Assembly (NCBI GenBank): GCA_965203325.1
Contig: OZ241875.1
Span: 2,752,001 to 2,816,000 of the forward strand
From: a bacterium
GTDB taxonomy: Bacteria; UBA8248
Length of the DNA stretch: 64,000 nt
Direction of reading: 5' to 3'
Made by a program: the position numbers and the translations under genes. The notes under the pieces are model-generated. The model was given only the letters and a program-made list of their open reading frames with translations. It did no database searches and was not told where the DNA came from. Shown here piece by piece: positions 14,002-30,051 of the stretch. Each line of letters starts with the position of its first letter. The stretch's first letter is position 1.

Positions 14002-17000
14002 ATGATGTTCAAAGACAAGCATATTCACAAGCTCTACGCTTTCGCGCTGGCGGCGGTCTTTGCGCTCGTGCTGGCGGGCTGTGGCGGGGGAGGCGGCGGC
14101 AGTGCGGCGGCACCGCCCGACGAACCGCCCCCGATGCCGACCCCGGAGGAGAGGTGCACGGCGGATGGCGGCCGGTATAACGCGGACGGGTCATGCACCT
14201 CGGCCGCTGATCTTGAGGCTGAAAGGGTGGCGGCTGAAGCGGCTGCCCTCACAGCTGCGAAGAATGCTGCGGCAGCAGCTGCCATGGCTGCGAATACAGC
14301 GCTGGATGCAGCGAAAGCAACCCTTACAGGCATCGCGGATATTCAGGATTCAGATCCCTTGCACTACAGCTTGGCCGAAGGCGCGCTGGACGACGCCAGG
14401 AGAGCGAAACAGGCTGCGGATGCCGCGAACGCCAAAGCGCAAGCCGCAGACAATTCAGGCGATGCCGAGATGTATCAGGCTCAGGCCGAGGCCGAGCAGG
14501 CAAAAGCGGAAGCTGCGATGACATTGGCTGCAGGTTTCGCCCAAGAGGTGAAGGACGCCAAGGCGGAGGCCGACAGGCTTGTACAGGAAGAACTCGATCG
14601 CCAGGAGCAAGAACGCATCGCGCAGGAAAACGCCATGAAGATTTCCGATGCGCAGGAAGCGGCCAGGCTGGCGAGTGTAGCGGCGAGTGAGGCGGCGAGT
14701 GCGGCTGCGACTGCTCTCGAGACGCTGCAGGGCGATGCCGACGCCACGGCGCATCAGCTCGTAACCGCCACGACGGCGAAGATAGCGGCGGATGCCGCGG
14801 CGCAAGACGCAGCCGATGCCTATGCCGCGGCCATGGGTGCGGATACGGTGGAAGCGGCCGAGTCGGCCCGTGACGATGCGCAGATGGCGCAGATGGTGGC
14901 AGAGGCGCAGCAGGGCATCATCGACGGATTCAACATGGCCAATCAGGACGATCGTGATGACGACGAAGTTGAAAACCAGCGCATGGCCGATGTCGCTGCG
15001 GCAAGAAGTGCCGCGATGCAATCCTATATGGATGCCGACGCCGATGCGACGAAGGCCGATGAGGTCGCTACCGCTGCCGAGACGGCCGCTCCCGGTTCTC
15101 CGGGTGCGATGGCCGCGAGAGAGGCCGCCACGGCGGCTCGCAATGCCGCGGACGCCGCGAAAGCAGCGCATGACGCCATCATGGACGACATGACCAAGGA
15201 CCAGGCTGAAGCAGAGAGAGATAAAGCGGCGACTGCGGCGGGTAACGCCAATGACAGCTACATGACGGCCAAGAGAAATAATGACGCGGTTCAAACGGCG
15301 AAGCTCGCCGGCGAGGAACAACAGAGAGTTCGCGACATCGCGGATGCGAAAGACGCTGCGGAAGATGCCATGGATGCCGCCAAGACTGCTTCCGATGCGG
15401 CTGGTGATGCGGCCGATGACGCCGAGACCGCCATGGACAACGCCAAGGCGGCTCTCGACAGAGCCAGGGCGGCGCGTACGGACTCTACGACAGCAGAAGC
15501 AGAATACGAGAAAGCCAAGGACGCGGCGACGGCTGCCAGGAACGCTGCAGACGAGGCGGACACTGCGTACATGGCGGCTAAGGCGGCGCATGACGGCATT
15601 GACGACGATGGTGAAGCTTCAGACGCCGAGGATGCCCAGGAAACGGCTGAAACGAAGCAGCGTGAAGCCGAGACTGCGCAGGGCACTGCCGACACGCAGA
15701 AGACGGCTGCGGAAACGGCCGAGTATGCTGCTGAAACCGCGGCCGGCACGCACGTCTTGGGTCTGCTCAAGGGGGCGAACGCGGTCGGTGTGATGGACAA
15801 TCCGGCTACGGACGCCAACGAGCAGGCCGCTGCGGTGATGGCCGTCGCGACGGCGATCGGCAATGCGGCGGGAGCACCTAGCGGAACAACTCCCGAAGAC
15901 GCCGACAACAACAGCGCCACGACCGGCGCCACCGTCAGTGATTCCGGGGTGACGGCAACTTGGCCTGCGGACGGATTTAACCCAGACGGTTCGGTAAACA
16001 ACGACGCCGAGGACAATCCTATTCCCGGCATGTTGTCGATCACCGTTACCCGCACCAGTGGCTCTAACCTCGTGTTCAGGACGGAAGCGGCGGAAGAGGA
16101 TGATGCCACCACGACAGATGTCGATGAGACCGTCGTGACGGCGACCGATATCGGCGGGCTGGGCGACTTCATGCACGGCTACTCGATCTCGGATCGCGGA
16201 ACGCACGCGATCGTCTTCACTGACAAGCAGCAGGGTACGCCGGCTGTGGCAGAGGTGGTGGCGATAACGGCGCAGACTCTCGTCAACAACAGCGGCGGTA
16301 CCGTTACCGATTTGGGCACCCGGTCGGGAACCGGGTTCACTGGCGTCACGTACTACGCCAGTGGGGTTACGGTTGGTGACGACACCGACATGGCCCTGGC
16401 GTTCACGGGTACTCTGACCTGTCCTGCCAGCGCAACAACTGGGTGTACGGCCACGGAGAATGCCGACGGAACCATCACCATCGAGGGTTACACGTTCACC
16501 GGTAGTCGGGCAGCCAGGGCGGCTGTCACAGCAGTTTCTGCGGCCGAGAATAACGACTATCTGGCGTTCGGCGTCTGGCTCCAGGAAGACAGCGATGCGG
16601 GCACCGAAGGCAACCAGCCCGCATTCGCCGCCTTCTTTGGCGGTGGCAGCCCGACCGCGGCCGCTTCCTTCAATGTGGCAATTACAGGTACGGCGACGTA
16701 TGAAGGCTCCGCTACGGGCGTATACACCGAAGGAACCAAGGTGGATTACTTCGAGGGCGACGCCACCCTGACAGCCAACTTCGGCACGGCGCCTGAAGAT
16801 GGTTCTGCCGACACCGTGACTGGAACCATCACCGGTATGATCGACAACATCGTCGCGGGCGGCGTGTCCATGAGCGACGTCATCCATCTGAACGATGGGG
16901 CTGGGGGCAACAACATTTCCGCGGAGGGTGGCTTTAGCGGCGACGCTCGCATGGGAGAAAGGACAGTCGAAATTGTGGATAGTGTTGCAACAGTGACTTA

Positions 17001-17208
17001 CCCCTACAACGGCTTGTGGCGCGGGTCGTTCTACAATGGGAACACGGATGATACCGCCACGGCGGATGTCGATGAAAGCCTGGTGGCGCCGGGTTCCGTC
17101 GCCGGAAGCTTCGGCGTGACCGGCACCGACGACATGGGTACAGCGGATGACGACACTGACGACGTCACCCGGAGCTACGTGGGCGCGTTCGGCGCTCACA
17201 AGCAGTAA
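14002..17208 (+). CDS. Large surface lipoprotein: Ala-rich helical stalk plus C-terminal TbpB-like beta-barrel domain
   Basis: AGGAGG RBS; lipobox LAGC followed by poly-Gly; ~520 aa Ala/Asp/Glu-rich region; C-terminal TGTATYEGSATG...ATLTANF...WRGSFY...SVAGSF...YVGAFGA pattern. Confidence 0.75.
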   Translation: MMFKDKHIHKLYAFALAAVFALVLAGCGGGGGGSAAAPPDEPPPMPTPEERCTADGGRYNADGSCTSAADLEAERVAAEAAALTAAKNAAAAAAMAANTALDAAKATLTGIADIQDSDPLHYSLAEGALDDARRAKQAADAANAKAQAADNSGDAEMYQAQAEAEQAKAEAAMTLAAGFAQEVKDAKAEADRLVQEELDRQEQERIAQENAMKISDAQEAARLASVAASEAASAAATALETLQGDADATAHQLVTATTAKIAADAAAQDAADAYAAAMGADTVEAAESARDDAQMAQMVAEAQQGIIDGFNMANQDDRDDDEVENQRMADVAAARSAAMQSYMDADADATKADEVATAAETAAPGSPGAMAAREAATAARNAADAAKAAHDAIMDDMTKDQAEAERDKAATAAGNANDSYMTAKRNNDAVQTAKLAGEEQQRVRDIADAKDAAEDAMDAAKTASDAAGDAADDAETAMDNAKAALDRARAARTDSTTAEAEYEKAKDAATAARNAADEADTAYMAAKAAHDGIDDDGEASDAEDAQETAETKQREAETAQGTADTQKTAAETAEYAAETAAGTHVLGLLKGANAVGVMDNPATDANEQAAAVMAVATAIGNAAGAPSGTTPEDADNNSATTGATVSDSGVTATWPADGFNPDGSVNNDAEDNPIPGMLSITVTRTSGSNLVFRTEAAEEDDATTTDVDETVVTATDIGGLGDFMHGYSISDRGTHAIVFTDKQQGTPAVAEVVAITAQTLVNNSGGTVTDLGTRSGTGFTGVTYYASGVTVGDDTDMALAFTGTLTCPASATTGCTATENADGTITIEGYTFTGSRAARAAVTAVSAAENNDYLAFGVWLQEDSDAGTEGNQPAFAAFFGGGSPTAAASFNVAITGTATYEGSATGVYTEGTKVDYFEGDATLTANFGTAPEDGSADTVTGTITGMIDNIVAGGVSMSDVIHLNDGAGGNNISAEGGFSGDARMGERTVEIVDSVATVTYPYNGLWRGSFYNGNTDDTATADVDESLVAPGSVAGSFGVTGTDDMGTADDDTDDVTRSYVGAFGAHKQ

Positions 17209-17705: not shown

Positions 17706-19092
17706 GAGTTACTGTCAAATGTTGTGTATGGCCGTCTTGAGTTCAGCGGCCTCCCTGCCGGTTTGTTTTTCGTTCATCCCATCGATGAACCTCACGTCGG
17801 TGATCACGTCGGCCAGCTGGCGCAAGCCGCCCAGCCGCCCCCATCGCTTCTCGGCGCTCATGGCGAGTTGGTGAATCAGGCTCAGCGCCGTCTTCTCGCT
17901 CAGGCAGTTCCTCGTCTTCGCCGTTCGCAGCCGGATCGTGGCGAAGGTCGACTCGATCGGGTTCGTCGTCCGAATGCTCCGCCAGTGCGCCGCCGGGAAG
18001 TCGTAGAAGGCGAACAACTCCTCGCGGTCCCTCGACAGGCACGCGGCGGCCTTGGGATACTTCGCCTCCCAGGTGGCGAGAAAGCGTTCGAACGCCTTCT
18101 CCGCATGCGCGCGGGTCTCCGCCCTCCACATCTCATACAGCATCGGCCTCGCTTCGACCTGAGCGCTCTTGGGCAGCTTGTCGAGAACGTTCGCCGTCTT
18201 GTGCACCCAGCAGCGCTGCGCCCGGGTCCCGGGGTACACCTCGGCCAGCGCCGACCACAACCCCAGCCCCCCGTCGCCCACGGCGAGCTTCGCCGCCTTC
18301 ACGCCCCGCTCCCGCAGGCGCAACAAAACCGCCTTCCAGCTCTCCTTCGATTCACGGAACCCCGCCTCCAGGGCCAGGAAGCGCTTGCGGCCTCGCGCGT
18401 CGCAGCCCACGACCACCAGAAGGCAGCGCCGCTCCCCGCTGCGAACGTTCACGTAGATGCCGTCCGCCCACAGATACGCGAACTCCTCCCCGTGCCACGC
18501 CCGCTCGCGCCACTGCGCGTACTCGCGCTCCCAGCCCTCCTTGAGCCGCGAGACGCTCGCCGGGGACAAGCCCCCCACCGACTCGCCGAACAGCGCCGTG
18601 AGCGCCTCGCCGAAGTCGTTCGTCGATACCCCCTTCAGGTACAGCCACGGTATCACCGCTTCCACGCGCCGCGTCTTGCGCAGATACGGCGGCAGCAACT
18701 CCGAGCGGAAACGCCGCCCCGACCCCGACCTGTCCCGCGTCCGGGGCACCTGGACACGCACCGGACCCACTCCCGTCAACACCTCCCGCGACGGCAGATA
18801 CCCGTTGCGAACCACCGCGCGGCGGCCCTGCGCGTCACGATCGCCCGCATATTCTTCGAGAAACGCCGCCAACTCCGCTTCCACCGCCTGGCGGATGATT
18901 CGTCGCGCGCCCGCGCGCAACAGTTCGCTCAACTCGTCCCGTAGGGCTGGATTCTTCATGGGAATCGTCGTATCTTCTCTCATGGTGGCGCATCTCCTTG
19001 TGCTGAATGACCGGGCTATTTGGCAAACCCTATTTCAGCAGGATGCGCCGCCTTCTTCAATTCAGCCCATACACAAGTTTTGAGCGTAACTC
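17706..19092 (-). mobile_element. IS256-family insertion sequence, apparently intact (1387 bp)
   Basis: Imperfect 26-bp IRs GAGTTACTGTCAAATGTTGTGTATGG / CCATACACAAGTTTTGAGCGTAACTC; perfect 9-bp flanking duplication TTGAAAAAG (17697-17705 and 19093-19101). Confidence 0.93.
17715..18983 (-). CDS. IS256-family DDE transposase
   Basis: RNGY, VPRTRDR, LYLKGVST, WADG, GDGGLG, QRCWVHK, RTTNPIES motifs. Confidence 0.95.
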   Translation of the reverse strand: MREDTTIPMKNPALRDELSELLRAGARRIIRQAVEAELAAFLEEYAGDRDAQGRRAVVRNGYLPSREVLTGVGPVRVQVPRTRDRSGSGRRFRSELLPPYLRKTRRVEAVIPWLYLKGVSTNDFGEALTALFGESVGGLSPASVSRLKEGWEREYAQWRERAWHGEEFAYLWADGIYVNVRSGERRCLLVVVGCDARGRKRFLALEAGFRESKESWKAVLLRLRERGVKAAKLAVGDGGLGLWSALAEVYPGTRAQRCWVHKTANVLDKLPKSAQVEARPMLYEMWRAETRAHAEKAFERFLATWEAKYPKAAACLSRDREELFAFYDFPAAHWRSIRTTNPIESTFATIRLRTAKTRNCLSEKTALSLIHQLAMSAEKRWGRLGGLRQLADVITDVRFIDGMNEKQTGREAAELKTAIHNI

Positions 19093-19557: not shown

Positions 19558-20111
19558 CGAGTCAGGGAGAGCAGGCGGGTTGGTTTTCAAGCCGGGGGCG
19601 CATTTGCCCGCATTTGCCGTGCTCGGTGAAAACCGGCGCTGCGCTATCGTGCGCGCGACGCGGGGAAGGGGTTTTTCCCCGGCGGATTGAGGCGCAGGCG
19701 GAGGAGGCTTTCTCATGGGATGGGGTGATGGAGCGGGGAAGCGTAACGGGAATGGATTCAGGGACGGCATGAAAATAAAAATAATGATATTTTCGATAAA
19801 ATCAGATAAATTCAAGGGGTTTTTCGATAAATTCCTGAAAATTTCTGACTATTCAAATGATTGTAATAAAAGGAGTTACCATATAAACCTGAGCGTCCCG
19901 CACTCAGATATGGCGCAAAAAAAAGTTTTTCGCCGCCCCCCGCATTTGCCCGCAACAGCCCGCATTTCCTCCCGCACCGCATCACGCCGGCAAAGCCTCA
20001 TTCATCAATCGGCTTTGACCCCCGCAATTGCGCGCATTCGCGCACTCGCCCGGGGCGTCCGCCCGGCCCGGCACAAGGCATTGATGATACGGGCGTTCGG
20101 GTAGCGAGCGG

Positions 20112-20498
20112 CTAGCCGGGGCGCAGGACGCTCCTGGCCTTCTCCCCTTCGGGCGTCACGGCGAGCACCTCGAGACTCGGCCGCGCGGGAGACCTCGTGA
20201 GCAGAAGCTCCACGGGCTCATCCAGCGCCATGATCTCGTGCACCTCGCCGGGGCGGAACTGCACCAGATCGCCGGGCGCGGCTTCCAGTATCTCCCCCTC
20301 CACGGCCAACCGCAGCCCGCCCTTCAAGAGATAGAGGAACTGCTCGTCATGGTGGTAATGAGGGTTGGAATGGCCCCCCGCCTCCATGCGGAAATAACCG
20401 ATGGTGGTATGGGCGCCGTCGACCCAGGCGGCGTCTGCGGTCACGTAGTCGGCGGCTTTCCCCTGGTTCTGCGCGGCGAGATTTCTGTAGATCGGCAT
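20112..20498 (-). CDS. Cupin domain protein
   Basis: PHYHHDEQFLYLLKG and GDLVQFRPGEVH cupin motifs; AGGAG RBS. Confidence 0.85.
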   Translation of the reverse strand: MPIYRNLAAQNQGKAADYVTADAAWVDGAHTTIGYFRMEAGGHSNPHYHHDEQFLYLLKGGLRLAVEGEILEAAPGDLVQFRPGEVHEIMALDEPVELLLTRSPARPSLEVLAVTPEGEKARSVLRPG

Positions 20499-20649
20499 GG
20501 AATAAACTCCTGTAGTTGAGGCGTTTACGGAAGATGGAGCGTCAGACGCATTCTAACGACACCGACTCGCAATCTGTCCAGCGCCCATGTATATTTGAGC
20601 GGCATGAGGAGTGCATCCCTCACTTCACAAAGTAATTCGGAGGCATTTC

Positions 20650-21684
20650 GTGAGCACTTCTCCCGCGGATGAGTTCGAGTATTTCTTCGACAAGCCCTGG
20701 TCGGACGGTCTTCCGGTCATCCCCCCGACGGAGGAGCGCCTGGGCCTCATGCTGGCGGGCACGAGCCGCGACCCGGACGAAGTGCTGGGCGACGTGCCCC
20801 CGTTATTGGCGCAGGCGGACGTTCGGACCATCGCCGCTCATGCCGTCATGGCCGGGTGCAAGCCGGCGTATATGCCCGTCCTCATCGGCGCCGTGGAGGC
20901 GATTCTGGAGGAAAAGTTCAACGTGGGCGGCGTGCAGGCGACGCTCTCCTGCGCGGCCCCTCTTTTGATCGTGAACGGCCCATACGCGGGGGAAATCGGC
21001 CTGCACGGCGGGCTCGGCTGTTTCGGCCCCGGGAATCGCGCCAACGCGACGATCGGGCGCGCCATCAGGCTTTTGCTCCTGAACATCGGCGGCGGAATAC
21101 CGGGCATCACCTCGATGAGCACGTTCTCTCAGCCGGGCAGGTTCACGTACTGCATCGCAGAGAATGAAGCGGAAAGCCCCTGGGAGTCTTTCGCGCAGAC
21201 GCAGGGTTTCGATGCGGGGGAGGATGTCGTCACCGCCGTGCACGTGGAAGGCCCCGTCATGTCCTGGGACGACGTGAGCGACGACCCAGAGCGCATGTTG
21301 CCCTCCATTGCGGACACCATGTCGCATCTGGGTTCGTGGAACTGCTGGGCCAACACGGATCTCGTGGTGGCGATGAGCCCGCAGCAGGCCGCGATTTGCG
21401 CCAAAAAGGGGTATTCAAAGGCGGATGTTCATGGGCGCCTTTGCGAAATCGCGGGCCGCACGGTGGGCGAACTCAAGACGGGGGGTCATTACCGGGAGAA
21501 CCGCATCAGGGACTTCCCGTTCCCCGTCGATCTGGATGATGACGATGCGTTCGTTCCGACGATCAAAGAGGCCGGGAGGCTGCTCCTGATCGTGGCGGGC
21601 GGGGTTCCGGGGCCGATTACGGCCGTCATGCACGGCTGGAACGGCAGCAGCCGCTCCGTCTCCCGCGCATTTGAGTCGTCGTGA
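20650..21684 (+). CDS. Uncharacterised WSDGLPVxPPT-family protein, paralogue 1 of 4
   Basis: GGAGG RBS before GTG 20650; shares WSDGLPV, AVMAGC, VNGPY, GPGNRANATIGRA with the next three ORFs. Confidence 0.85.
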   Translation: MSTSPADEFEYFFDKPWSDGLPVIPPTEERLGLMLAGTSRDPDEVLGDVPPLLAQADVRTIAAHAVMAGCKPAYMPVLIGAVEAILEEKFNVGGVQATLSCAAPLLIVNGPYAGEIGLHGGLGCFGPGNRANATIGRAIRLLLLNIGGGIPGITSMSTFSQPGRFTYCIAENEAESPWESFAQTQGFDAGEDVVTAVHVEGPVMSWDDVSDDPERMLPSIADTMSHLGSWNCWANTDLVVAMSPQQAAICAKKGYSKADVHGRLCEIAGRTVGELKTGGHYRENRIRDFPFPVDLDDDDAFVPTIKEAGRLLLIVAGGVPGPITAVMHGWNGSSRSVSRAFESS

Positions 21685-21707
21685 TACCCATATATATCAA
21701 GGGGTGA

Positions 21708-22742
21708 ATGGTTTTGAACGATCCTCAAGATGAATTCGAGTTTTTCCTGGAAAAACCCTGGTCGGACGGCCTGCCCGTCGTCACCCCGACCGAAGAGCGC
21801 ATCGAGCGCATGCTCTCGGGCACGAAGAGAAGCCCTGCCGAGGTCATCGGTCAGGTTCCCCCCGCCATGGGGGAGGCCACGGTCCACAGCGTGGCGGTGC
21901 ATGCCGTGATGGCGGGCTGCAAACCCGAATACCTGCCGGTCGTTCTCGGCGCCGCCTCCCTCATGCTTCGCGATGAATTCAACATGAACGGCGTGCAGGG
22001 CACGATGCACGGCGTGGCGCCCCTGATGATCGTGAACGGCCCGTATTCCGGGGAAATCGGCATTCACGGGGGCAATGGCTGTTTCGGCCCCGGCTTCAGG
22101 GCCAACGCCTCCATCGGCCGCGCGATACGCCTGATTTTGATGAACCTGGGCGGGGGCATCCCGGGCGTTTCTTCCATGACGATTTTCGGCACGCCGCTGC
22201 GCTATACCGCGTGCGTCACGGAGAACCTCCAGTTTCACCCCTGGGAGACGCTTGCCGAATCGAGGGGATACGGGGCGGAGGAGAACGTGATCACCATGGC
22301 CATGGTGGAAAGCCCGCGCCTGACCTTCGATGACGTCAGCGAGGAGCCCGGGAGGCTGCTCCGGGGAATCGCCGATGCGATGACGGGTCTGGGCTCCTGG
22401 AACATGCACGCGCCCAGAACCGACATGGTCGTCGCCATGAATCCCCAGCATGCGAAGATTTGCTCCGGTGGCGGCCTCACGCGCGCGGACGTGCACCGGC
22501 GGCTGTGTGAGCTGGCCGGCCACAAGGTGAAGGACCTGAAACAAGGCGGAAACTGGCGGCGTGAGCGCGCGCTGGCGATGTATATCCACACGGACCCCGA
22601 TGATGATGAGTTTTTCGTTCCCGTCATCAAGGACCCCCGTGACCTCCATTTGATCGTAGCGGGCGGCTGGGGATCGGGCAGTGCGGTCTGTCACGGGTGG
22701 AGCGGCGGCAGCCGCGCCGTTCATGGCGTGTATGAAGTGTAA
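21708..22742 (+). CDS. Uncharacterised WSDGLPVxPPT-family protein, paralogue 2 of 4
   Basis: Same motifs; colinear with paralogue 1 over the full length. Confidence 0.85.
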   Translation: MVLNDPQDEFEFFLEKPWSDGLPVVTPTEERIERMLSGTKRSPAEVIGQVPPAMGEATVHSVAVHAVMAGCKPEYLPVVLGAASLMLRDEFNMNGVQGTMHGVAPLMIVNGPYSGEIGIHGGNGCFGPGFRANASIGRAIRLILMNLGGGIPGVSSMTIFGTPLRYTACVTENLQFHPWETLAESRGYGAEENVITMAMVESPRLTFDDVSEEPGRLLRGIADAMTGLGSWNMHAPRTDMVVAMNPQHAKICSGGGLTRADVHRRLCELAGHKVKDLKQGGNWRRERALAMYIHTDPDDDEFFVPVIKDPRDLHLIVAGGWGSGSAVCHGWSGGSRAVHGVYEV

Positions 22743-22783
22743 TGCCGGATTTCCCGCATTCCGTCTGGTAAAGTCATTTTCCA

Positions 22784-23800
22784 ATGGATGAATTCGAGTT
22801 TTTCTTTCAAAAACCCTGGTCGGACGGCCTGCCGGTAATCCCACCTACCCAAGAGCGAATAACCGCCATGTTTTCGGGTAGCAGGCTTGAAACCTCGGAA
22901 ATTATCGGTTTGGTGCCGCCCCTCATGGGAGAGGCGAGCGCCGAGGCGGTTGCCGCGCACGCCGTGATGGCGGGGTGTGAGCCTTCGTATTTGCCCCTTG
23001 TTATTGCAGGGCTTAGAGCGCTCCTTGCGCCGAAACTCAACTTGAACGGCGTACAGGGCACCATGCACAGCGCGGCCCCCCTGATCATCGTGAACGGACC
23101 CTATGCGAAAAAAATCGGCCTGCACGGCGGCACAGGGTGCTTCGGGCCGGGTTTTCGGGCGAATGCGACGATTGGACGCGCCATCAGGTTAATACTCATG
23201 AACCTGGGCGGCGGTGTGCCGGTTTCCGCCTCGATGAGCACGTTCGGCTCGCCTGCCAGATATACGTTTTGCATCGCCGAGAACGAAGCGGAAAGCCCCT
23301 GGGAGCCGTTGTCCGTCACGAGGGGATTTCAGCAGGATGAAGATGTCGTTACCGCCGTGATGACGGAAGCGCCGCAAGGCTATATCGACGATTATTCAAA
23401 AGAGCCGGAATCTTTTTTCGTGGGTCTGGCGGATAAAATATCCACACTGGGTTCCCTGAATATATGGCTGAAAACCCAGGTGGTCGTTGCTTTGGGTCCG
23501 GATCATGCGCGCATGTGCGCGGACGCGGGTCTGGATAAAAAAGATGTTCATCGCCGAATCATGGAACTCGCGCGCAGACCCCTGGGAGAGCTGAAAAAAT
23601 CGGGCTATTGGCGTGAGGAGATGGCAGCCAAGTGGCCATTTGACGTGGATCTGCAGGATAATTCGTATCTGGTACCGGCGATCAAGGATGAAGACGATCT
23701 GATTCTTCTCGTCGCAGGGGGTACGCCCGGCCCGGTGACTGCCGTCATGCCCGGCTGGGTGGATGGCAGCGAGGCGGTCTCGACGGATTATCAACCATAA
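22784..23800 (+). CDS. Uncharacterised WSDGLPVxPPT-family protein, paralogue 3 of 4
   Basis: Starts MDEFEFFFQKPWSDGLPV; same motifs. Confidence 0.85.
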   Translation: MDEFEFFFQKPWSDGLPVIPPTQERITAMFSGSRLETSEIIGLVPPLMGEASAEAVAAHAVMAGCEPSYLPLVIAGLRALLAPKLNLNGVQGTMHSAAPLIIVNGPYAKKIGLHGGTGCFGPGFRANATIGRAIRLILMNLGGGVPVSASMSTFGSPARYTFCIAENEAESPWEPLSVTRGFQQDEDVVTAVMTEAPQGYIDDYSKEPESFFVGLADKISTLGSLNIWLKTQVVVALGPDHARMCADAGLDKKDVHRRIMELARRPLGELKKSGYWREEMAAKWPFDVDLQDNSYLVPAIKDEDDLILLVAGGTPGPVTAVMPGWVDGSEAVSTDYQP

Positions 23801-23835
23801 GTCTTTCTGTCAGCTTTGCTTGTGAGGATGAACGT

Positions 23836-24855
23836 ATGGATGAGTTTGAGTTTTTCTTTGATAAAGAATGGTCGGACGGCCTGCCTGTCGTGACGCCCAC
23901 GGAAGAGAGAATCGGTTTGATGCTCTCGGGAACGACGAGGGAGCCGGGCGAAGCGCTCGGCCACGTAGCTCCGGCAGGAGGTGAACTCAGCATTCAAAGC
24001 GTGGCGGCCCATGCCGTGATGGCGGGTTGCAAGCCCGAATACATGCCGGTGTTGATTGCCGGGTTGGAAGCGCTTCTCGATGAGCGTTTCAACGTGAACC
24101 TGATTCAGGCCACAACGAGCGCGGGCGCTCCTTTTTTGTTGGTCAATGGCCCCTACGCCAGTGAAATCGGGCTACACGGCGGTGTGGGCTGTATGGGACC
24201 CGGTTTTCGCGCGAATTTGACCATTGGCCGCGCCGTGAGGCTCATTATGATGAACGTGGGAGGAGGTATTCCCGGGGTCACCTGTCTCGGCGGTTTTGGC
24301 GGCCCCTGGCGAAACACGTATTGCATCATGGAGAACGAGGAGGAATCTCCCTGGGAGTCATATGCGGAGTCCAAAGGGTTTTCTAAAAGCGATAACGTGG
24401 TGACCATGATTCCTCTCGAAGGGCCCGTGCAGGTATGGGACGATGCGAGCCTGACGCCCGACCGGCTTCTCACGACGGTTGCCGATATGATGTCCGCCTT
24501 GGGTGGGCCCAATATGTATCGCCAAGCGGATATGGCGGTTGTCCTGGGTGCGCAGCATGCGCATCTTTGCGCTGACGCCGGAATGACTCGCAGTGATGTC
24601 CATCAAAGACTATTGGAAATGGGTGGGCGCACCATCGGGGATATCAAGCGCGGCGGCATATGGCGAGGCGAAAAAGGCGCGGATCGCTGGCCGTTTCCCG
24701 TGGATGTAAATGATGACGATTTTTTCGTGCCAGCGGTTGGCGATCCCGACGATCTTCATTTAATCGTCGCGGGAAGCAGGGGTTCGCCCTCCAGTATGGT
24801 CATGCACGGAATCACCGTGGCGTGTCGGGCCGTGAAAAAAAAATTCAACTTGTAA
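23836..24855 (+). CDS. Uncharacterised WSDGLPVxPPT-family protein, paralogue 4 of 4
   Basis: Starts MDEFEFFFDKEWSDGLPV; same motifs. Confidence 0.85.
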   Translation: MDEFEFFFDKEWSDGLPVVTPTEERIGLMLSGTTREPGEALGHVAPAGGELSIQSVAAHAVMAGCKPEYMPVLIAGLEALLDERFNVNLIQATTSAGAPFLLVNGPYASEIGLHGGVGCMGPGFRANLTIGRAVRLIMMNVGGGIPGVTCLGGFGGPWRNTYCIMENEEESPWESYAESKGFSKSDNVVTMIPLEGPVQVWDDASLTPDRLLTTVADMMSALGGPNMYRQADMAVVLGAQHAHLCADAGMTRSDVHQRLLEMGGRTIGDIKRGGIWRGEKGADRWPFPVDVNDDDFFVPAVGDPDDLHLIVAGSRGSPSSMVMHGITVACRAVKKKFNL

Positions 24856-24964
24856 ATTTGTGTAGATATGCGGGCTGTAATGCCAGGATGGCGTGGCCGA
24901 AATAGCTGTGCTCCTTGCTAAATAAATCTTTGTGAAGCCAGAAATGTTTTGGTGTTTTCTATAG

Positions 24965-24996
24965 AAAAAGCCCCGGCAAAATGCCGGGGCTTTTTT
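24965..24996. terminator. Bidirectional intrinsic terminator
   Basis: AAAAAGCCCCGGCA-AAA-TGCCGGGGCTTTTTT between convergent genes. Confidence 0.85.
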
Positions 24997-25013
24997 GTGT
25001 GATTGGTGTTTAG

Positions 25014-27275
25014 CTAATGGCCGTTGCTTTTTCCATTTTTCTTCATGACCGCCCAGCAGACGCGCTCGGGCGTGATGGGCAGGTCGTAGACTTCCGTGCC
25101 TATCGCATCGTTGATGGCGAGGGCAACGGCGGCCGGCGCATTGTTGCACGGCGGCTCGCCGACGCCGCGTGCGCCGTATGGGCCTGCGCCTTCTCCACAT
25201 TCGAGAACAACAGACTCAAACTCGCCGATATCCGATGAAGTGGGAATCAGATACTCATGAAAGCTCTGTGATCGGCAGTCCCCTTCCACCATGGTGATTT
25301 CTTCGTGGAGCGCATAGCCAATTCCCATTACCGCGCCGCCTTCGAATTGCCCTTCCACGCTTTGAGGGTTCAACGCTCGTCCGACGTCATGGGAAGCGAC
25401 GTGCTTCAAGAGATTCACTTCGCCGGTTTCGATGTCGACTTCCACTTCGCTTGCGTGAACGCCAAAGGTGTAGTCCGACCATCCGCCCATGCCGTTCATG
25501 TATCGCTCCGGATTTTCATATTCATGTCCGGGCATGTTGTAACCATGCGTGCAATGCAGTGCCTCACCCATTTTTTTGGCTTCGCCAGCCGCAGCACCGA
25601 TGCCAACTCTTCTCTCGGGAGCGGAGGCTACCCATGCCTCCCCGCTTCCTACGCGAATATCCTCTTCAGCAGCCTCGAGCAACGAAGCGGCGCCTTTGGT
25701 CACGGCTTTCCGAACCTCATCTGCGGCAAGTCGAACGGCGTGCCCCGCCATGAGTGTTTGACGGGAGCCTGCCGTGATTCCCGAGAGCGGTGTTGTGGCG
25801 GAATCTGATAGACGAGTGGATACCTGATCGAGCCTGAGCCCCAGGGTTTCAGCCGTGATGCTTTGAAGCGTAGCGCCCTGGCCGGCGCCTATGTCCGGCG
25901 CGCTCACGCGAACTACTGCGCTGCCGTCCGGCTCGAGGTGGACCGCCGCATTCGCGTCGTCATTCGGCCTTCCGTAGCCGGTGATGTTCGCCGCCGCCGC
26001 ACGCCCAATGCGTTTCCCTGGGCCTGGTTCTGTGGGTTCGCCCAAGGCCTGAAGCGCACTGTCGAGGCATCCTTCCAGATTCGGTTCGTATGGTATTTTC
26101 TGTCCGGTCGGCAGTTCCTGGTTTTTCTGGATGAAATTTTTGCGCCTGAATTCGTATTTATCCATCCCGATGGCGTCTGCAACCAGGTTCATTTGGGTCT
26201 CATATGCGAAGCAAACCTGGTTCGACCCCACACCACGCATCGCGTTGGTGATGGGATTGTTGGTGAGATAGCCGTGCGCGCGTATTTTAGCGTTGGGCAC
26301 ATCGTAGGGGCCTGCAGCGATGCACATGGCGCCCAGGAGGAATAGATTGGATTTGTACGGATAGGCTCCAGCGTCACCCACGATATCCGCTTCTACGGCA
26401 AGAATTTTCCCGTCCTTGGTCGCTCCTGTTTTGTACCTCATATAGAAAGGATGTTTTTTCGAGGTGTTTCGGATGCCGTGCTCGCGGCCCAACACCATTA
26501 TGGCCGGTCTTTGCGTATGCCAGGTGAGTAATGCCAGGTAAGGTTCCACGGTCAGCATGCCCTTGGCGCCGAATCCGCCGCCGACATATGTGCCGAGGTG
26601 GCGGACGCGGCTATGCGAGATTCCTAAAATCGCCGCAATGGCGCGATAGTATTCAATTAGCTGTGTGCCGACGCGGATGGTGATGACGCCGTCTTCCTCC
26701 ATCCATGAAGTACCGGAAGCGGGTTCCAGGAAGGCGTGTTCAGCGAGTTGCGTGGTATATGTTTTCTCAATCACCACGTCGGCTTCGTCAAACGCTCTTT
26801 TTATGTCTCCACGTGTAGCTTCAAAGTCACACGCTTGTCGCTTCTCGGCGTTAGTTTCATCGTGACGCGTTGTCCACACGCCCTCTTCCGACTCGATTTC
26901 CAATTCGATCGCAGCTATCGCGGCATCAAGCGCTTCTCTGTTTTCGGCACCTACGATGGCGAGGGCATCTCCAGTAAATTCGATCTTATCTTCCACCAGC
27001 ACCGGCTGATGGGGCAGGCCCGGCGTCCCGGAGCCGAATCGCGCGTTTGTGCCTGGAATGTCCTTTGCGGTCAGAATGGCGGCTACGCCTGGAATTTTTT
27101 CGGCTTTAGAAGTGTCGAGTTTTTTGAGGCGGCCTACGGGGACGGGCGTAAACAATACGCCGCACTGCAAAGCGCCTGCGGGGATCGCGTCTTCTCCGTA
27201 GGGCATAGAGCCATCTGCTTTCGGAATGGCGTCGTATCGAACATTCGACTTGCCGATGATATCGTAATCGGCCAT
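25014..27275 (-). CDS. Xanthine dehydrogenase/aldehyde oxidase family molybdopterin-binding subunit
   Basis: HAFLEP, GGGFGAK, AMRGVG, DIGAGQG, GQFEGG, RGVGEPP; AAGGAG RBS before MADYDII. Confidence 0.92.
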   Translation of the reverse strand: MADYDIIGKSNVRYDAIPKADGSMPYGEDAIPAGALQCGVLFTPVPVGRLKKLDTSKAEKIPGVAAILTAKDIPGTNARFGSGTPGLPHQPVLVEDKIEFTGDALAIVGAENREALDAAIAAIELEIESEEGVWTTRHDETNAEKRQACDFEATRGDIKRAFDEADVVIEKTYTTQLAEHAFLEPASGTSWMEEDGVITIRVGTQLIEYYRAIAAILGISHSRVRHLGTYVGGGFGAKGMLTVEPYLALLTWHTQRPAIMVLGREHGIRNTSKKHPFYMRYKTGATKDGKILAVEADIVGDAGAYPYKSNLFLLGAMCIAAGPYDVPNAKIRAHGYLTNNPITNAMRGVGSNQVCFAYETQMNLVADAIGMDKYEFRRKNFIQKNQELPTGQKIPYEPNLEGCLDSALQALGEPTEPGPGKRIGRAAAANITGYGRPNDDANAAVHLEPDGSAVVRVSAPDIGAGQGATLQSITAETLGLRLDQVSTRLSDSATTPLSGITAGSRQTLMAGHAVRLAADEVRKAVTKGAASLLEAAEEDIRVGSGEAWVASAPERRVGIGAAAGEAKKMGEALHCTHGYNMPGHEYENPERYMNGMGGWSDYTFGVHASEVEVDIETGEVNLLKHVASHDVGRALNPQSVEGQFEGGAVMGIGYALHEEITMVEGDCRSQSFHEYLIPTSSDIGEFESVVLECGEGAGPYGARGVGEPPCNNAPAAVALAINDAIGTEVYDLPITPERVCWAVMKKNGKSNGH

Positions 27276-27469
27276 TTGTCTGCTCCTTAAGGTAAGAGGT
27301 TTTCCGTAAATTAGGCTTGATTTTGCCAAAATTCGGCGAATCTGAGAAGCGGAAAAAACATCATTCGCATTTTCATCGGGAAATCGAATGGGCTGATATC
27401 GTAGACAATGAATGAATTGCGGGATATGATTTAGTCTCGGTTGAGTTCACATATCATTTGGAGAAAACC

Positions 27470-28000
27470 ATGGCGAACGGAATGGGATTCATCGATCCGA
27501 CGGCGGGAGGATCGGCCGCGCGAATCGAGCTTGCGCAACGGCCCGGCGATCTTTCGGGAAAGGTGGTGGGGCTCCTCGATAACACCAAGGAACAAGCGGA
27601 TATCATTTTGGAAACCTTGGGCAATGCACTTCGTGAGCAATACGACGTGGCCAGAGTCATTTCGAGGCGAAAAGAGCATTACTCGAAGCCTGCTACGGAT
27701 GAAATGATCGAAGAAATGGCCCAGGAGGTGGATGTGGCGATAGCCGCATTGGGAGGCTGAGGCTCCTGCACGTTGTGCAGTGTGCACGACACGGTTGAAT
27801 TTGAAAAACGGGGCATTCCTTCAACGACCATTATTACTGAGGCCTTCAAGAACGCGGCGGACTTTCAATTCCGCGGCAAGGGCATGGAAGGGCACCCTTA
27901 TATTGAGTTGCCTCACCCGGTCAGCAATCTACAGCCTGATGAAATGAGAGACACGACGCTCAAGTTTGTTGAAGAAGTGGCCAGCCATCTGAAAAGCTGA
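27470..28000 (+). CDS. UGSC-family selenoprotein (Sec at codon 97, TGA 27758-27760)
   Basis: ORFs 27458-27760 and 27773-28000 are in the same frame; readthrough gives VDVAIAALGG-U-GSCTLCSVHDTVEFEKRGIP; SECIS-like hairpin downstream. Confidence 0.85.
27761..27790 (+). promoter_or_regulatory. Putative bacterial SECIS element
   Basis: Stem GUUGUGCA/UGCACGAC with a G-initiated loop (GUG) beginning 19 nt after the UGA. Confidence 0.6.
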
Positions 28001-28039
28001 TTCGAATTGAGTTGAAAAGATATTTCCCAGGAGGGGCAC

Positions 28040-28822
28040 GTGCGCGAATTTGAAACATTATCCTATACGGAAGAAGATGGATTGGCGGTAGTGAAGTTCA
28101 ACCGTCCGGAGAGTCTGAACGCAATCAGCTTCAAGATGGCGGAAGAATTCGTGGAATTAACGCGAACTTTGGCCGACGCGCAAAATGTTCGCGTTGTGAT
28201 ACTCACCGGCGAGGGACGTGGTTTCAGCACGGGCCGAGACCTGAAAGAAAGCACTACGCATACGAAGGAGATGGCCGATCAATATCAGCGCTATGTGATG
28301 TCGGCGACATCGTTATGGGAACGCTTGCCCATGCCCACCATCGCCGCCATCAACGGTCATACGTTCGGCTGGGGTGTGGAAATTACCCTGGTATGCGATA
28401 TCAGACTCGCCGCGGAAGAAGCCACTCTTTGTTTTCCGGAATGCAGTTTGGGTATTTTCCCCGGAGCTGGTGGCGTGGTCTGGCTTCAAAGGGTCATGCC
28501 GGCCGGTCAGGCGAAAGAGTTGGTTTTCACGAGCAAGCGAATCGATGGCAAGGAGGCCGAGCGCATCGGTTTGGTGAACAAAGCGCATCCGCTGGATGTG
28601 TTGATGGATGAAGCCACTTCCATCGCGGAGAGGATCAGAGACAATGGCCCATTGGGTGTTCGTGGCGCGAAAAAAGTGATTGATCAGACACTCGATATGC
28701 CGCTCAGTCAGGCTATCGAGTTTTCCAACGCCCACAGGTTGCCATTGAATCACACCAAGGATTTCGCCGAGGCGCTGCAAGCGTTCAAAGAGAAGAGGAA
28801 ACCTGTTTTTACCGGAGAATAA
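28040..28822 (+). CDS. Enoyl-CoA hydratase/isomerase (crotonase) family
   Basis: NRPESLNA, FSTGRDL, PTIAAINGHTFGWGVE, CDIR, PECSLGIFPG. Confidence 0.9.
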   Translation: MREFETLSYTEEDGLAVVKFNRPESLNAISFKMAEEFVELTRTLADAQNVRVVILTGEGRGFSTGRDLKESTTHTKEMADQYQRYVMSATSLWERLPMPTIAAINGHTFGWGVEITLVCDIRLAAEEATLCFPECSLGIFPGAGGVVWLQRVMPAGQAKELVFTSKRIDGKEAERIGLVNKAHPLDVLMDEATSIAERIRDNGPLGVRGAKKVIDQTLDMPLSQAIEFSNAHRLPLNHTKDFAEALQAFKEKRKPVFTGE

Positions 28823-28850
28823 AAAGACGCCTAATCTTACTTGTAGTATC

Positions 28851-28879
28851 AAGCCTGTCCCTTAGGGGACAGGCTTTTT
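28851..28879 (+). terminator. Intrinsic terminator-like hairpin
   Basis: AAGCCTGTCCC-TTAG-GGGACAGGCTTTTT. Confidence 0.75.
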
Positions 28880-28896
28880 GTTCATTGTGACTAAAT

Positions 28897-29598
28897 ATGA
28901 ATAGTGACCTCCTTCACATGCATAGCGAATCTCATATCGCGATCATCACCGTGAATCGGCCGGAAGCGCGAAATGCGTTCAACACATCATTGATGGAAGC
29001 CATGTGTAGGGAGATGGATGAAATTCAAAAGATGTCAGATATTAGAGTGCTTATCGTTACGGGAGCGGGAAGTTCTTTTTCTGCAGGACGCGATCTTAAG
29101 GAAAGCGCCACCCATACGGAAGAACAGGCAAAGCGCTTCATGTTATTGGGCGAGAGATGGAGCACAGCCCTTCGTGAGCTGCCCATCCCGACCATAGCAG
29201 CGGTAAACGGACCCGCTTTCGGATGGGGGATGGTGTTGATGCTCTCATGTGATATTCGTGTTGTGGTGGACGACGCTGTTTTGGGATATCCGGAGACTGC
29301 GCTGGGAGTATTTCCTGGAGGAGACGCCACAGTTCGCCTGACGCGGCAGATTTTTGTTCCTTCTGCAAAAGACTTGGTGCTCACTGGCAGAAGATTTGAT
29401 GCACAAGAGGGCCATTGCTTAGGATTGGTGAATCGCGTCACATTGAAAAGAGACTTGATGGCACAAGTCCAAAAGCTGGCCGATGAAATAGCCCAACATC
29501 CGCTGGAAAGACTAAAGGCGATGAAATCAACTTTTTTGAAAGTTGAAGCGATGCCGCGCTTTGGGCATTTGTCGATAGCCGAGAAAATCGACCGATGA
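28897..29598 (+). CDS. Second enoyl-CoA hydratase family protein (paralogue of 28040, shorter C-terminus)
   Basis: NRPEARNA, FSAGRDLKESATHT, PTIAAVNGPAFGWG, PETALGVFPG. Confidence 0.85.
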   Translation: MNSDLLHMHSESHIAIITVNRPEARNAFNTSLMEAMCREMDEIQKMSDIRVLIVTGAGSSFSAGRDLKESATHTEEQAKRFMLLGERWSTALRELPIPTIAAVNGPAFGWGMVLMLSCDIRVVVDDAVLGYPETALGVFPGGDATVRLTRQIFVPSAKDLVLTGRRFDAQEGHCLGLVNRVTLKRDLMAQVQKLADEIAQHPLERLKAMKSTFLKVEAMPRFGHLSIAEKIDR

Positions 29599-29978
29599 AA
29601 GTCAGGGAGTGTTTTTTGCAAGCGGTAGCGATTGTTGACTCATATGAAGACGCCAGAGATACCTGGGCGGCCATGAACAGGCTTAACGCGCCCTGGGCGG
29701 CGGTTTTTGATGGTACGCACCTGGTTGGCATAGTAAACAAACAAGACCTTGATGCGTTTGTTCGTGTGCCCGAAGTTTTTCAGAACGTTGGTGAGGTGGC
29801 CCAAACGGACATACCTGCCAGGCGAGGGATATCACTATCCCCGAACGCGGATTTGAACGAGGCTGTTCTTCAGCTTGAGATGGTTGGCGCGGATGCCGCT
29901 TTTGTCGAGGGCATTGGCAGGCCGCCTGGCGTCATGGAAATGGAAGCGGCCAATCGCGTATTGTCTTGTTCTTCATGA
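29595..29978 (+). CDS. CBS-domain-like protein
   Basis: MKVRE start, VFDGTHLVGIVNKQDL CBS-like motif; ATGA overlap with upstream gene. Confidence 0.6.
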   Translation: MKVRECFLQAVAIVDSYEDARDTWAAMNRLNAPWAAVFDGTHLVGIVNKQDLDAFVRVPEVFQNVGEVAQTDIPARRGISLSPNADLNEAVLQLEMVGADAAFVEGIGRPPGVMEMEAANRVLSCSS

Positions 29979-30051
29979 TACGCTTTTGTTTTCCTTAAAG
30001 TGATCGATCATTTGCCTCACTTTCAAGGGGCAATTGACGGGAGGAACGTCC

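Follow-up and report, generated by a model that had tools for sequence, protein, structure and literature searches.

The closest described parallels to the genes considered here are the glycine reductase (Grd) and Prd systems, in which a selenocysteine (Sec) subunit is paired with a partner protein. GrdE and PrdA are the subunits that specify the substrate, and Grd systems devote a Sec subunit of their own to each substrate. More distant parallels are ribonucleotide reductase and MsrA, thioredoxin-dependent reductases that work with shuttle cysteines. This article concerns a stretch of 64,000 nucleotides (called the window; positions 2,752,001 to 2,816,000 of contig OZ241875.1, assembly GCA_965203325.1, from a bacterium of the UBA8248 lineage), where four tandem genes, par1 to par4, encode paralogues of one protein family, here called the partner family, and lie near a gene for a selenoprotein of the UGSC family. 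I propose that par1 to par4 encode the substrate-binding subunits of a two-component selenol- or thiol-dependent reductase and that the nearby UGSC protein is their shared Sec subunit, a proposal that I judge to be evenly balanced between right and wrong.

The pairing itself has a history. A domain named Unknown_1 is fused to UGSC in reads of the Global Ocean Sampling (GOS) collection (Zhang and Gladyshev 2008, PMC2398784, Fig. S1A). Par1 to par4 carry its motif AVMAGC.P...VNGP (AVMAGCxPxY...NGP, with the conserved cysteine), as compared by eye with that figure, and judged by this motif they are Unknown_1 domains, so that their pairing with UGSC is already in print, without a function. For UGSC that paper suggests only a possible redox activity and a likely thioredoxin-like (Trx-like) fold; its account of the pair gives no family size, paralogue expansion, one-to-many ratio, fold or function. 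The initial annotation called the system a candidate undescribed one, which is right in that no function is assigned to UGSC or its partner by the libraries and papers searched (PMC1976440 among them; most subscription journals lie outside the coverage) and wrong in that the pairing had been published.

The annotation also stated that the two families are often adjacent or fused. Profile, neighbourhood and fusion analysis found both kinds of link to be real. UGSC sequence is carried by 40 of the 150 best representatives of the partner family: 13 are full N-terminal fusions, 3 have an N-half of UGSC at the C-terminus, ending at the Sec position, and 24 have a C-half cut at the Sec stop. The host genome (G000) has a Sec-containing UGSC-partner fusion at C1:2370457-2372046. 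(Coordinates are positions in the window unless they bear the prefix G000 or L; other genomes are numbered G0nn and fetched loci Lnnn.) Seven of the eight UGSC genes of G000 adjoin a partner gene. Five further genomes, selected because they contain partner loci, hold 69 UGSC matches, of which 62 have a partner no more than 300 bp away on the same strand. The two families are both present in 43 of 51 genomes of the phylum and both absent from the other 8. A Chloroflexota sample of 151 genomes, whose centre genome was a known positive, has UGSC in 14, all within the 17 that have the partner.

UGSC is not the only thiol module joined to the partner. Thioredoxin or redoxin domains, with a linker cysteine in the pattern PGC-G/Q-S/A, are fused to 6 of the 150 representatives, and further fusions bring in thioredoxin reductase, the beta chain of ferredoxin-thioredoxin reductase (FTR) and a NifU-like CxxC domain. 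These fusions, in which other thiol modules stand where UGSC otherwise does, are the main argument for taking the partner to be the business end of the system and the part that needs reducing power. The likeness to ribonucleotide reductase and MsrA lies in the fusions to Trx-like, thioredoxin reductase and FTR domains and in the few partners with CxxxxC-type tails; it is a likeness of logic only, with no sequence or fold match reported.

Three observations on gene structure belong here. The Sec fusion of G000, with the motif U-G-G-C, opens a set (G000:C1:2370457-2373084; also L008 and L086) that continues with a second partner gene, a flavin adenine dinucleotide (FAD) oxidoreductase and a sugar-type ATP-binding cassette (ABC) binding protein. 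Betaproteobacteria and Chloroflexota commonly carry a second class of Sec UGSC-partner fusions, which extend some 450-480 amino acids past the Sec stop (L045:4440-6146; G051-G056). Finally, the partner at G000:C1:3100550-3101643 (L083) ends in a CVDGTC tail, as does P0200, a tail that I would liken to the shuttle-cysteine tails of ribonucleotide reductases; 11 of the 150 representatives have at least 2 cysteines in their last 30 residues, several of them probably spurious.

What the window locus adds over the published fusion is evidence, at the level of subfamilies, for one Sec subunit with many partners. Of the 15 partner genes in G000, par1 to par4 form one clade with three solo genes (SH-aLRT 100, in a quick tree of 101 rows), and these three stand alone elsewhere in the genome. 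The remaining eight are neighbours of, or joined in fusions with, the other seven UGSC genes; in G000 only the window UGSC lacks an adjacent partner. The selenoprotein first described as single is single at its locus and one of eight in its genome. Its subtype occurs in 39 of the 51 phylum genomes, in single copy in 39 of 39 (E<=1e-22), and the cognate partner clade also occurs in 39 of the 51, in 1-7 copies (E<=1e-90, a cut-off at which the 7 clade members of G000 are recovered). The two are found together in 38 genomes, 34 of which have at least 2 partners. This gives genomic support to the architecture initially suggested, one Sec subunit for several partners. Of 18 Betaproteobacteria/Chloroflexota loci, 9 have an orthologue of the window UGSC (68-73%) immediately next to a par2-type gene, and in 4 of the 9 (L035, L036, L045 and L076) the order is partner-partner-UGSC. 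The sets of tandem partners differ between genera, and the partner family has expanded to 10-22 copies per genome, with genes for transporters and catabolic enzymes as neighbours. One fetched locus, L073, is titled Bordetella parapertussis and groups among sequences of environmental Betaproteobacteria; the label of that record may be doubtful.

The four genes of the window are not decaying duplicates. Positions of the open reading frames and the alignment bear out what had been noted of them: colinear paralogues of about 340 amino acids, tightly spaced on the + strand, with gaps of 23, 41 and 35 bp (par1-par2, par2-par3 and par3-par4) and 51-56% pairwise identity. The shared motifs and variable spots listed at the outset are all present as described, and a single strong hairpin with A and T tails closes the set. 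Measured against orthologues in four related loci, the ratio of nonsynonymous to synonymous substitution (dN/dS) is 0.05-0.12 for par1 to par4 and 0.02-0.06 for UGSC. Par1 to par4 are intact genes, each under purifying selection, and the full invariant core of the family is kept in all four. A check of the paralogue sequence for internal duplication found no repeat. The spots at which the paralogues vary are, for par2 and par4, conserved within orthologue groups across phyla (par4 orthologues are present in Betaproteobacteria too). These spots behave as expected of specificity residues and may line a pocket.

That the window selenoprotein is a real UGSC family member is clear from its score against PF24696, 175.3 bits (cut-off 25) over model positions 3-171 of 172. 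Its two halves, scanned separately against NCBIfam NF041046 (cut-off 125 bits), score 55.2 and 65.6 bits. A search of PDB sequences with UGSC gave nothing significant. G000 has the machinery for Sec: tRNA-Sec, selA and selB. Shortly after the UGA lies a hairpin that meets the criteria for a bacterial selenocysteine insertion sequence (SECIS) quoted in PMC13188914. In 19 orthologues (the window UGSC and those less than 92% identical), the commonest codon has a mean frequency of 0.95 at codons 100-107, as against 0.61 at 57 other conserved codons, so the synonymous sites of the hairpin are frozen across phyla; the same hairpin, with compensatory changes in the stem, is found in the other seven UGSC genes of G000. 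The claim of a SECIS is based on this local hairpin and its conservation, not on the 111-nt fold around the UGA, which is no better than shuffles (z 0.09). Gene callers cut UGSC in two at Sec, and of the 120 closest homologues in the database 119 are N-halves that end at the Sec position.

How far does the comparison with glycine reductase carry? On the side of the Sec subunit, some distance. A UGSC profile of 20 rows matches 6 GrdB-like sequences in hhalign at 83% (E 9e-6, 85 columns) with Sec in register, the reversed control giving 0.1%. The window UGSC also has the UxxCxxC motif, as U97-C100-C103, although among the 8 UGSC genes of G000 just 3 retain the third cysteine; the motif is named for GrdB in PMC13188914. 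PF07355 (GrdB/PrdB) gave no row for the window UGSC, and none of its 4 matches in G000 falls at a UGSC position. The partner, tried as a pyruvoyl proprotein of the GrdE/PrdA type (PF09338), has no Pfam match and scores 0.2% in hhalign against 8 GrdE-like sequences; homology of the partner to GrdB was rejected by hhalign as well. The UGSC profile gives a 61% match to part of GrdE. No genes of the GrdA/GrdC type are among the locus neighbours scanned.

The initial analogy therefore holds for UGSC, which is GrdB-like around Sec, and fails for the partner and for the accessory genes. Because the profiles match in the Sec region, PF07355 does not, and the partner is unrelated to GrdE, the Sec subunit likely works, to judge by these profiles, like GrdB/PrdB; the system itself lies outside that family. 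What the systems share is a Sec subunit paired with a partner, here UGSC with the partner family. They differ in that a Grd system has its own Sec subunit for each substrate, whereas here one Sec gene is matched by up to seven partners. G000 also has a separate GrdB/GrdE-like pair (C1:522903-525306) and three small PrdB-like genes (C1 3076038-3076430, 2665631-2666032 and 2498551-2498862); relatives of these genes (L103-L105 and L112) have U-P-L-C with an in-frame TGA.

The partner family is large, 5,786 clusters at 50% identity (E<=0.001), and neither Pfam nor NCBIfam has a model that matches par1 to par4. Searches of PDB sequences with the partner found nothing significant (best E 0.14-0.63), and the ESM Atlas gave only hypothetical clusters plus one with 16% UGSC, with no named match once UGSC was excluded. 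An AlphaFold2 model of par2 built from 146 sequences has pLDDT 95.6 and pTM 0.93 (from only 4 sequences, pLDDT was 36.8). With this model Foldseek gave 0 matches at E<=0.001; its top row is the alpha part of class I iron-sulfur (Fe-S) fumarate hydratase, 7xky (E 7e-3, TM 0.28, root-mean-square deviation (rmsd) 15.9), which is within background. A wide fold comparison against 48,161 chains gave 0 at Z>=5 (best 4.8; fumarase alpha 3.6, rmsd 5.1, 177 residues aligned), and a further comparison had a best Z of 4.5. As modelled, par2 matches no solved fold above background, an absence that is no proof of a new fold. The possibility raised in the initial annotation, a match to a characterised unrelated enzyme family, did not materialise in the Pfam/NCBIfam, PDB sequence or fold searches. 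Fumarase alpha (PF05681) was tried as a homologue and rejected, with 0.4% in hhalign against 15 sequences. A class I Fe-S hydro-lyase has three conserved cluster cysteines; the partner family has only two conserved cysteines, C71 (98%) and C169 (94%). Other conserved polar residues among 108 diverse rows include D20, Q97, T99, N133, R138, E172 and W179 (par2 numbering throughout).

In the mechanism that I propose, the invariant core of the partner (D20, C71, Q97-T99, N133, R138, C169, E172 and W179) and the paralogue-specific segments 100-103, 154-162, 198-204, 229-234 and 321-334 would together form a pocket that binds a small organic substrate. UGSC would bind the partner, and its selenolate (Sec97) would attack the bound substrate or re-reduce an oxidised cysteine of the partner. 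The resulting adduct would be resolved by Cys100/Cys103, and UGSC would be recycled through its cysteines by reductants of the thioredoxin type. The substrates are probably small carboxylic, coenzyme A (CoA)-linked or organosulfur compounds of heterotrophic catabolism. The bond cleavage conjectured in the initial annotation would be at C-N or C-S; the glycine/proline reductases cleave C-N reductively by way of a Sec-bound intermediate. Beyond this I suggest, tentatively and with less expectation of being right, a new class of selenoenzyme, in which the partner is catalytic and has a fold not yet in the PDB, and its substrate-specific paralogues are interchangeable on one GrdB-related Sec subunit, or on thioredoxin modules where selenium is unused.

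Several facts weigh against a shared Sec subunit. At the window locus UGSC and par1 to par4 are separate transcription units, since a terminator and a gene on the opposite strand intervene. Eight of the 18 Betaproteobacteria/Chloroflexota loci have no UGSC in the fetched stretch, and one has it at 3.4 kb; some of the contigs concerned are short, though L038 and L068 reach 17 kb. In three genomes of the Chloroflexota sample the partner gives matches and UGSC gives none. Two genomes, G049 and G044, each of them fragmented, are discordant at the subfamily level. Nor is a single copy universal, for the betaproteobacterial G052 carries four partners and two W-type UGSC genes. Neighbouring genes are variable and fix no substrate. 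Most of the genomes counted are close kin, not independent, and hence no P value is given. Lastly, 7 of the 150 representatives have tandem double partner domains, and the paralogues might be parts of a hetero-oligomer, not alternative subunits. This last point leads to a different view, that the paralogues make up a fixed hetero-oligomer with one activity (for example a partner dimer with one UGSC), or that par2 is the sole true partner of UGSC and the others use thioredoxin or act solo. Operons of two partners and one UGSC (the four loci named above) fit this view, as do the G000 fusion that is followed by a second partner and the observation that only par2-type genes, plus one par1-type gene, are seen directly beside this UGSC subtype. 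Against it, the copy number runs from 1 to 7, the tandem sets vary by genus, three clade members stand alone elsewhere in the genome, and invariant core and purifying selection persist in all four paralogues; I consider this view unlikely, though worth taking seriously.

The strict retention of Sec among the closest homologues would suit catalysis better than housekeeping, and I consider it decidedly unlikely that the partner is a non-redox enzyme (a lyase, hydratase or isomerase, possibly dependent on a metal or Fe-S) whose cysteines are kept in the reduced state by UGSC, acting as a redoxin for maintenance or activation. Such an enzyme is brought to mind by the fumarate hydratase at the top of the Foldseek list and its 177 aligned residues, by CoA enzymes among the neighbours and by the thioredoxin-type modules that can stand in for UGSC in fusions; set against these are the background level of the fold similarity, the profile comparison with fumarase alpha and the mere two cysteines conserved family-wide. 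The subfamily could also work with the neighbouring molybdenum (Mo) hydroxylases, sharing a heterocycle pathway with them or supplying their cofactor with sulfur or selenium. The Mo gene is syntenic in the 19 of 69 loci that have the full set, loci of the clade in G000 lie within 10 kb of one of its 10 Mo large subunits in 2 of 4 cases (0 of 7 for other loci; for any one locus, a distance of less than 5 kb has a chance of about 3%), and there is a different Mo gene facing a solo paralogue (L046 and L050) or a par2-type gene (L074). The link is nonetheless very improbable, as the Mo gene runs on the other strand and a Mo gene turns up in just 1 of the 18 Betaproteobacteria/Chloroflexota loci. 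Scarcely credible is a role in detoxification or repair (of peroxides, metalloids or oxidised thiols) in place of catabolism: the expansion of the family among genes for transport and catabolism fits diversification of substrates better, even if most prokaryotic selenoproteins are thiol oxidoreductases and PMC2398784 proposes no more for UGSC than a role in redox and a fold that is likely Trx-like.

The features of the locus are collected in Table 1. As first noted, the small UxxCxxC selenoprotein starts about 2.6 kb past par4, and the gene for the Mo large subunit, on the opposite strand, is the only one between them; no FAD or Fe-S subunit genes adjoin it. The order par1 to par4, Mo, UGSC is kept complete in 19 of 69 fetched loci. 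The hairpin behind par4 is not among the sites listed by a general terminator scan, and a promoter scan found 7 sites where 7.0 were expected. The enoyl-CoA hydratase-family gene is likely co-transcribed with UGSC. One contig from an RNA library of a related strain covers 27489-28824, by itself no proof of a single transcript; only small shares of the RNA runs matched, as contigs of related strains.

Table 1. Features of the par1-par4/UGSC locus, in window positions
Feature	Position	Strand	Remarks
Cupin_2 protein	20112..20498	-	transcribed away from the paralogue operon; as a neighbour, conserved only among Nitrospinota-type relatives
par1, UGSC-partner (Unknown_1) paralogue	20650..21684	+	344 amino acids; signature QATLSCA / MHGW
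par2, paralogue, widespread type	21708..22742	+	344 amino acids; QGTMHGVA, GSWNMH, CHGW
par3, paralogue	22784..23800	+	338 amino acids; QGTMHSA / MPGW
par4, paralogue	23836..24855	+	339 amino acids; QATTSAG / GFGGPWR / MHGITVA
Bidirectional terminator-like hairpin, between par4 and Mo gene	24964..24996		-25.6 kcal/mol; A and T tails
Xanthine-dehydrogenase-family molybdenum hydroxylase large subunit	25014..27275	-	convergent to par4, divergent from UGSC
UGSC selenoprotein	27470..28000	+	176 amino acids; Sec97 at in-frame TGA 27758-27760; motif U-G-S-C-T-L-C-S-V-H-D
Bacterial SECIS-like hairpin	27772..27790	+	8-bp stem, GUG loop 19 nt after UGA
Enoyl-CoA hydratase-family gene	28040..28822	+	directly 3' of UGSC; then terminator 28851-28876

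Among the neighbour proteins scanned, in hand-picked sets of 59 and 40, are CoA-transferases, crotonases, acyl-CoA dehydrogenases, TctC receptors, amidases and flavin monooxygenases. TctC receptors, which are common in Betaproteobacteria, appear in 6 of 14 loci in the 40-protein scan. A second Mo-hydroxylase large subunit, unrelated to the first (29-40%), is convergent to, or lies near, other members of the clade (L046:9084-11327, L050:9126-11369, L074:2719-4922 and G000:C1:3263553-3265820). The GC content drops from about 63% to about 50% over the paralogue-Mo-UGSC region (20000-30000) and stays near 50% to the end of the window; the genome mean is 60%. Upstream of the cupin is an intact Mutator-family (IS256-like) transposase (17715-18983, - strand), and at 14002-17208 (+ strand) is a gene for an Ala/Asp-rich protein of 1068 amino acids that has no match in Pfam and whose N-terminus resembles that of a lipoprotein. 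A gene whose product has a similar N-terminus lies near a solo paralogue at L079:5605-7596.

UGSC is one of the commonest aquatic selenoproteins and has long gone unexplained. A Sec subunit shared among partners, if true, gives a first handle on its role, and does so through a family of thousands of clusters that has no database model and no solved fold. With its one Sec subunit and its four to seven cognate partners, each bearing a distinct and conserved pocket-like signature, the window locus lends itself to clean testing. Should the new class prove real, it would mean a widespread route for the reductive cleavage of bonds in small organic compounds, used by uncultured heterotrophs of the sea, of sponges and of the subsurface.

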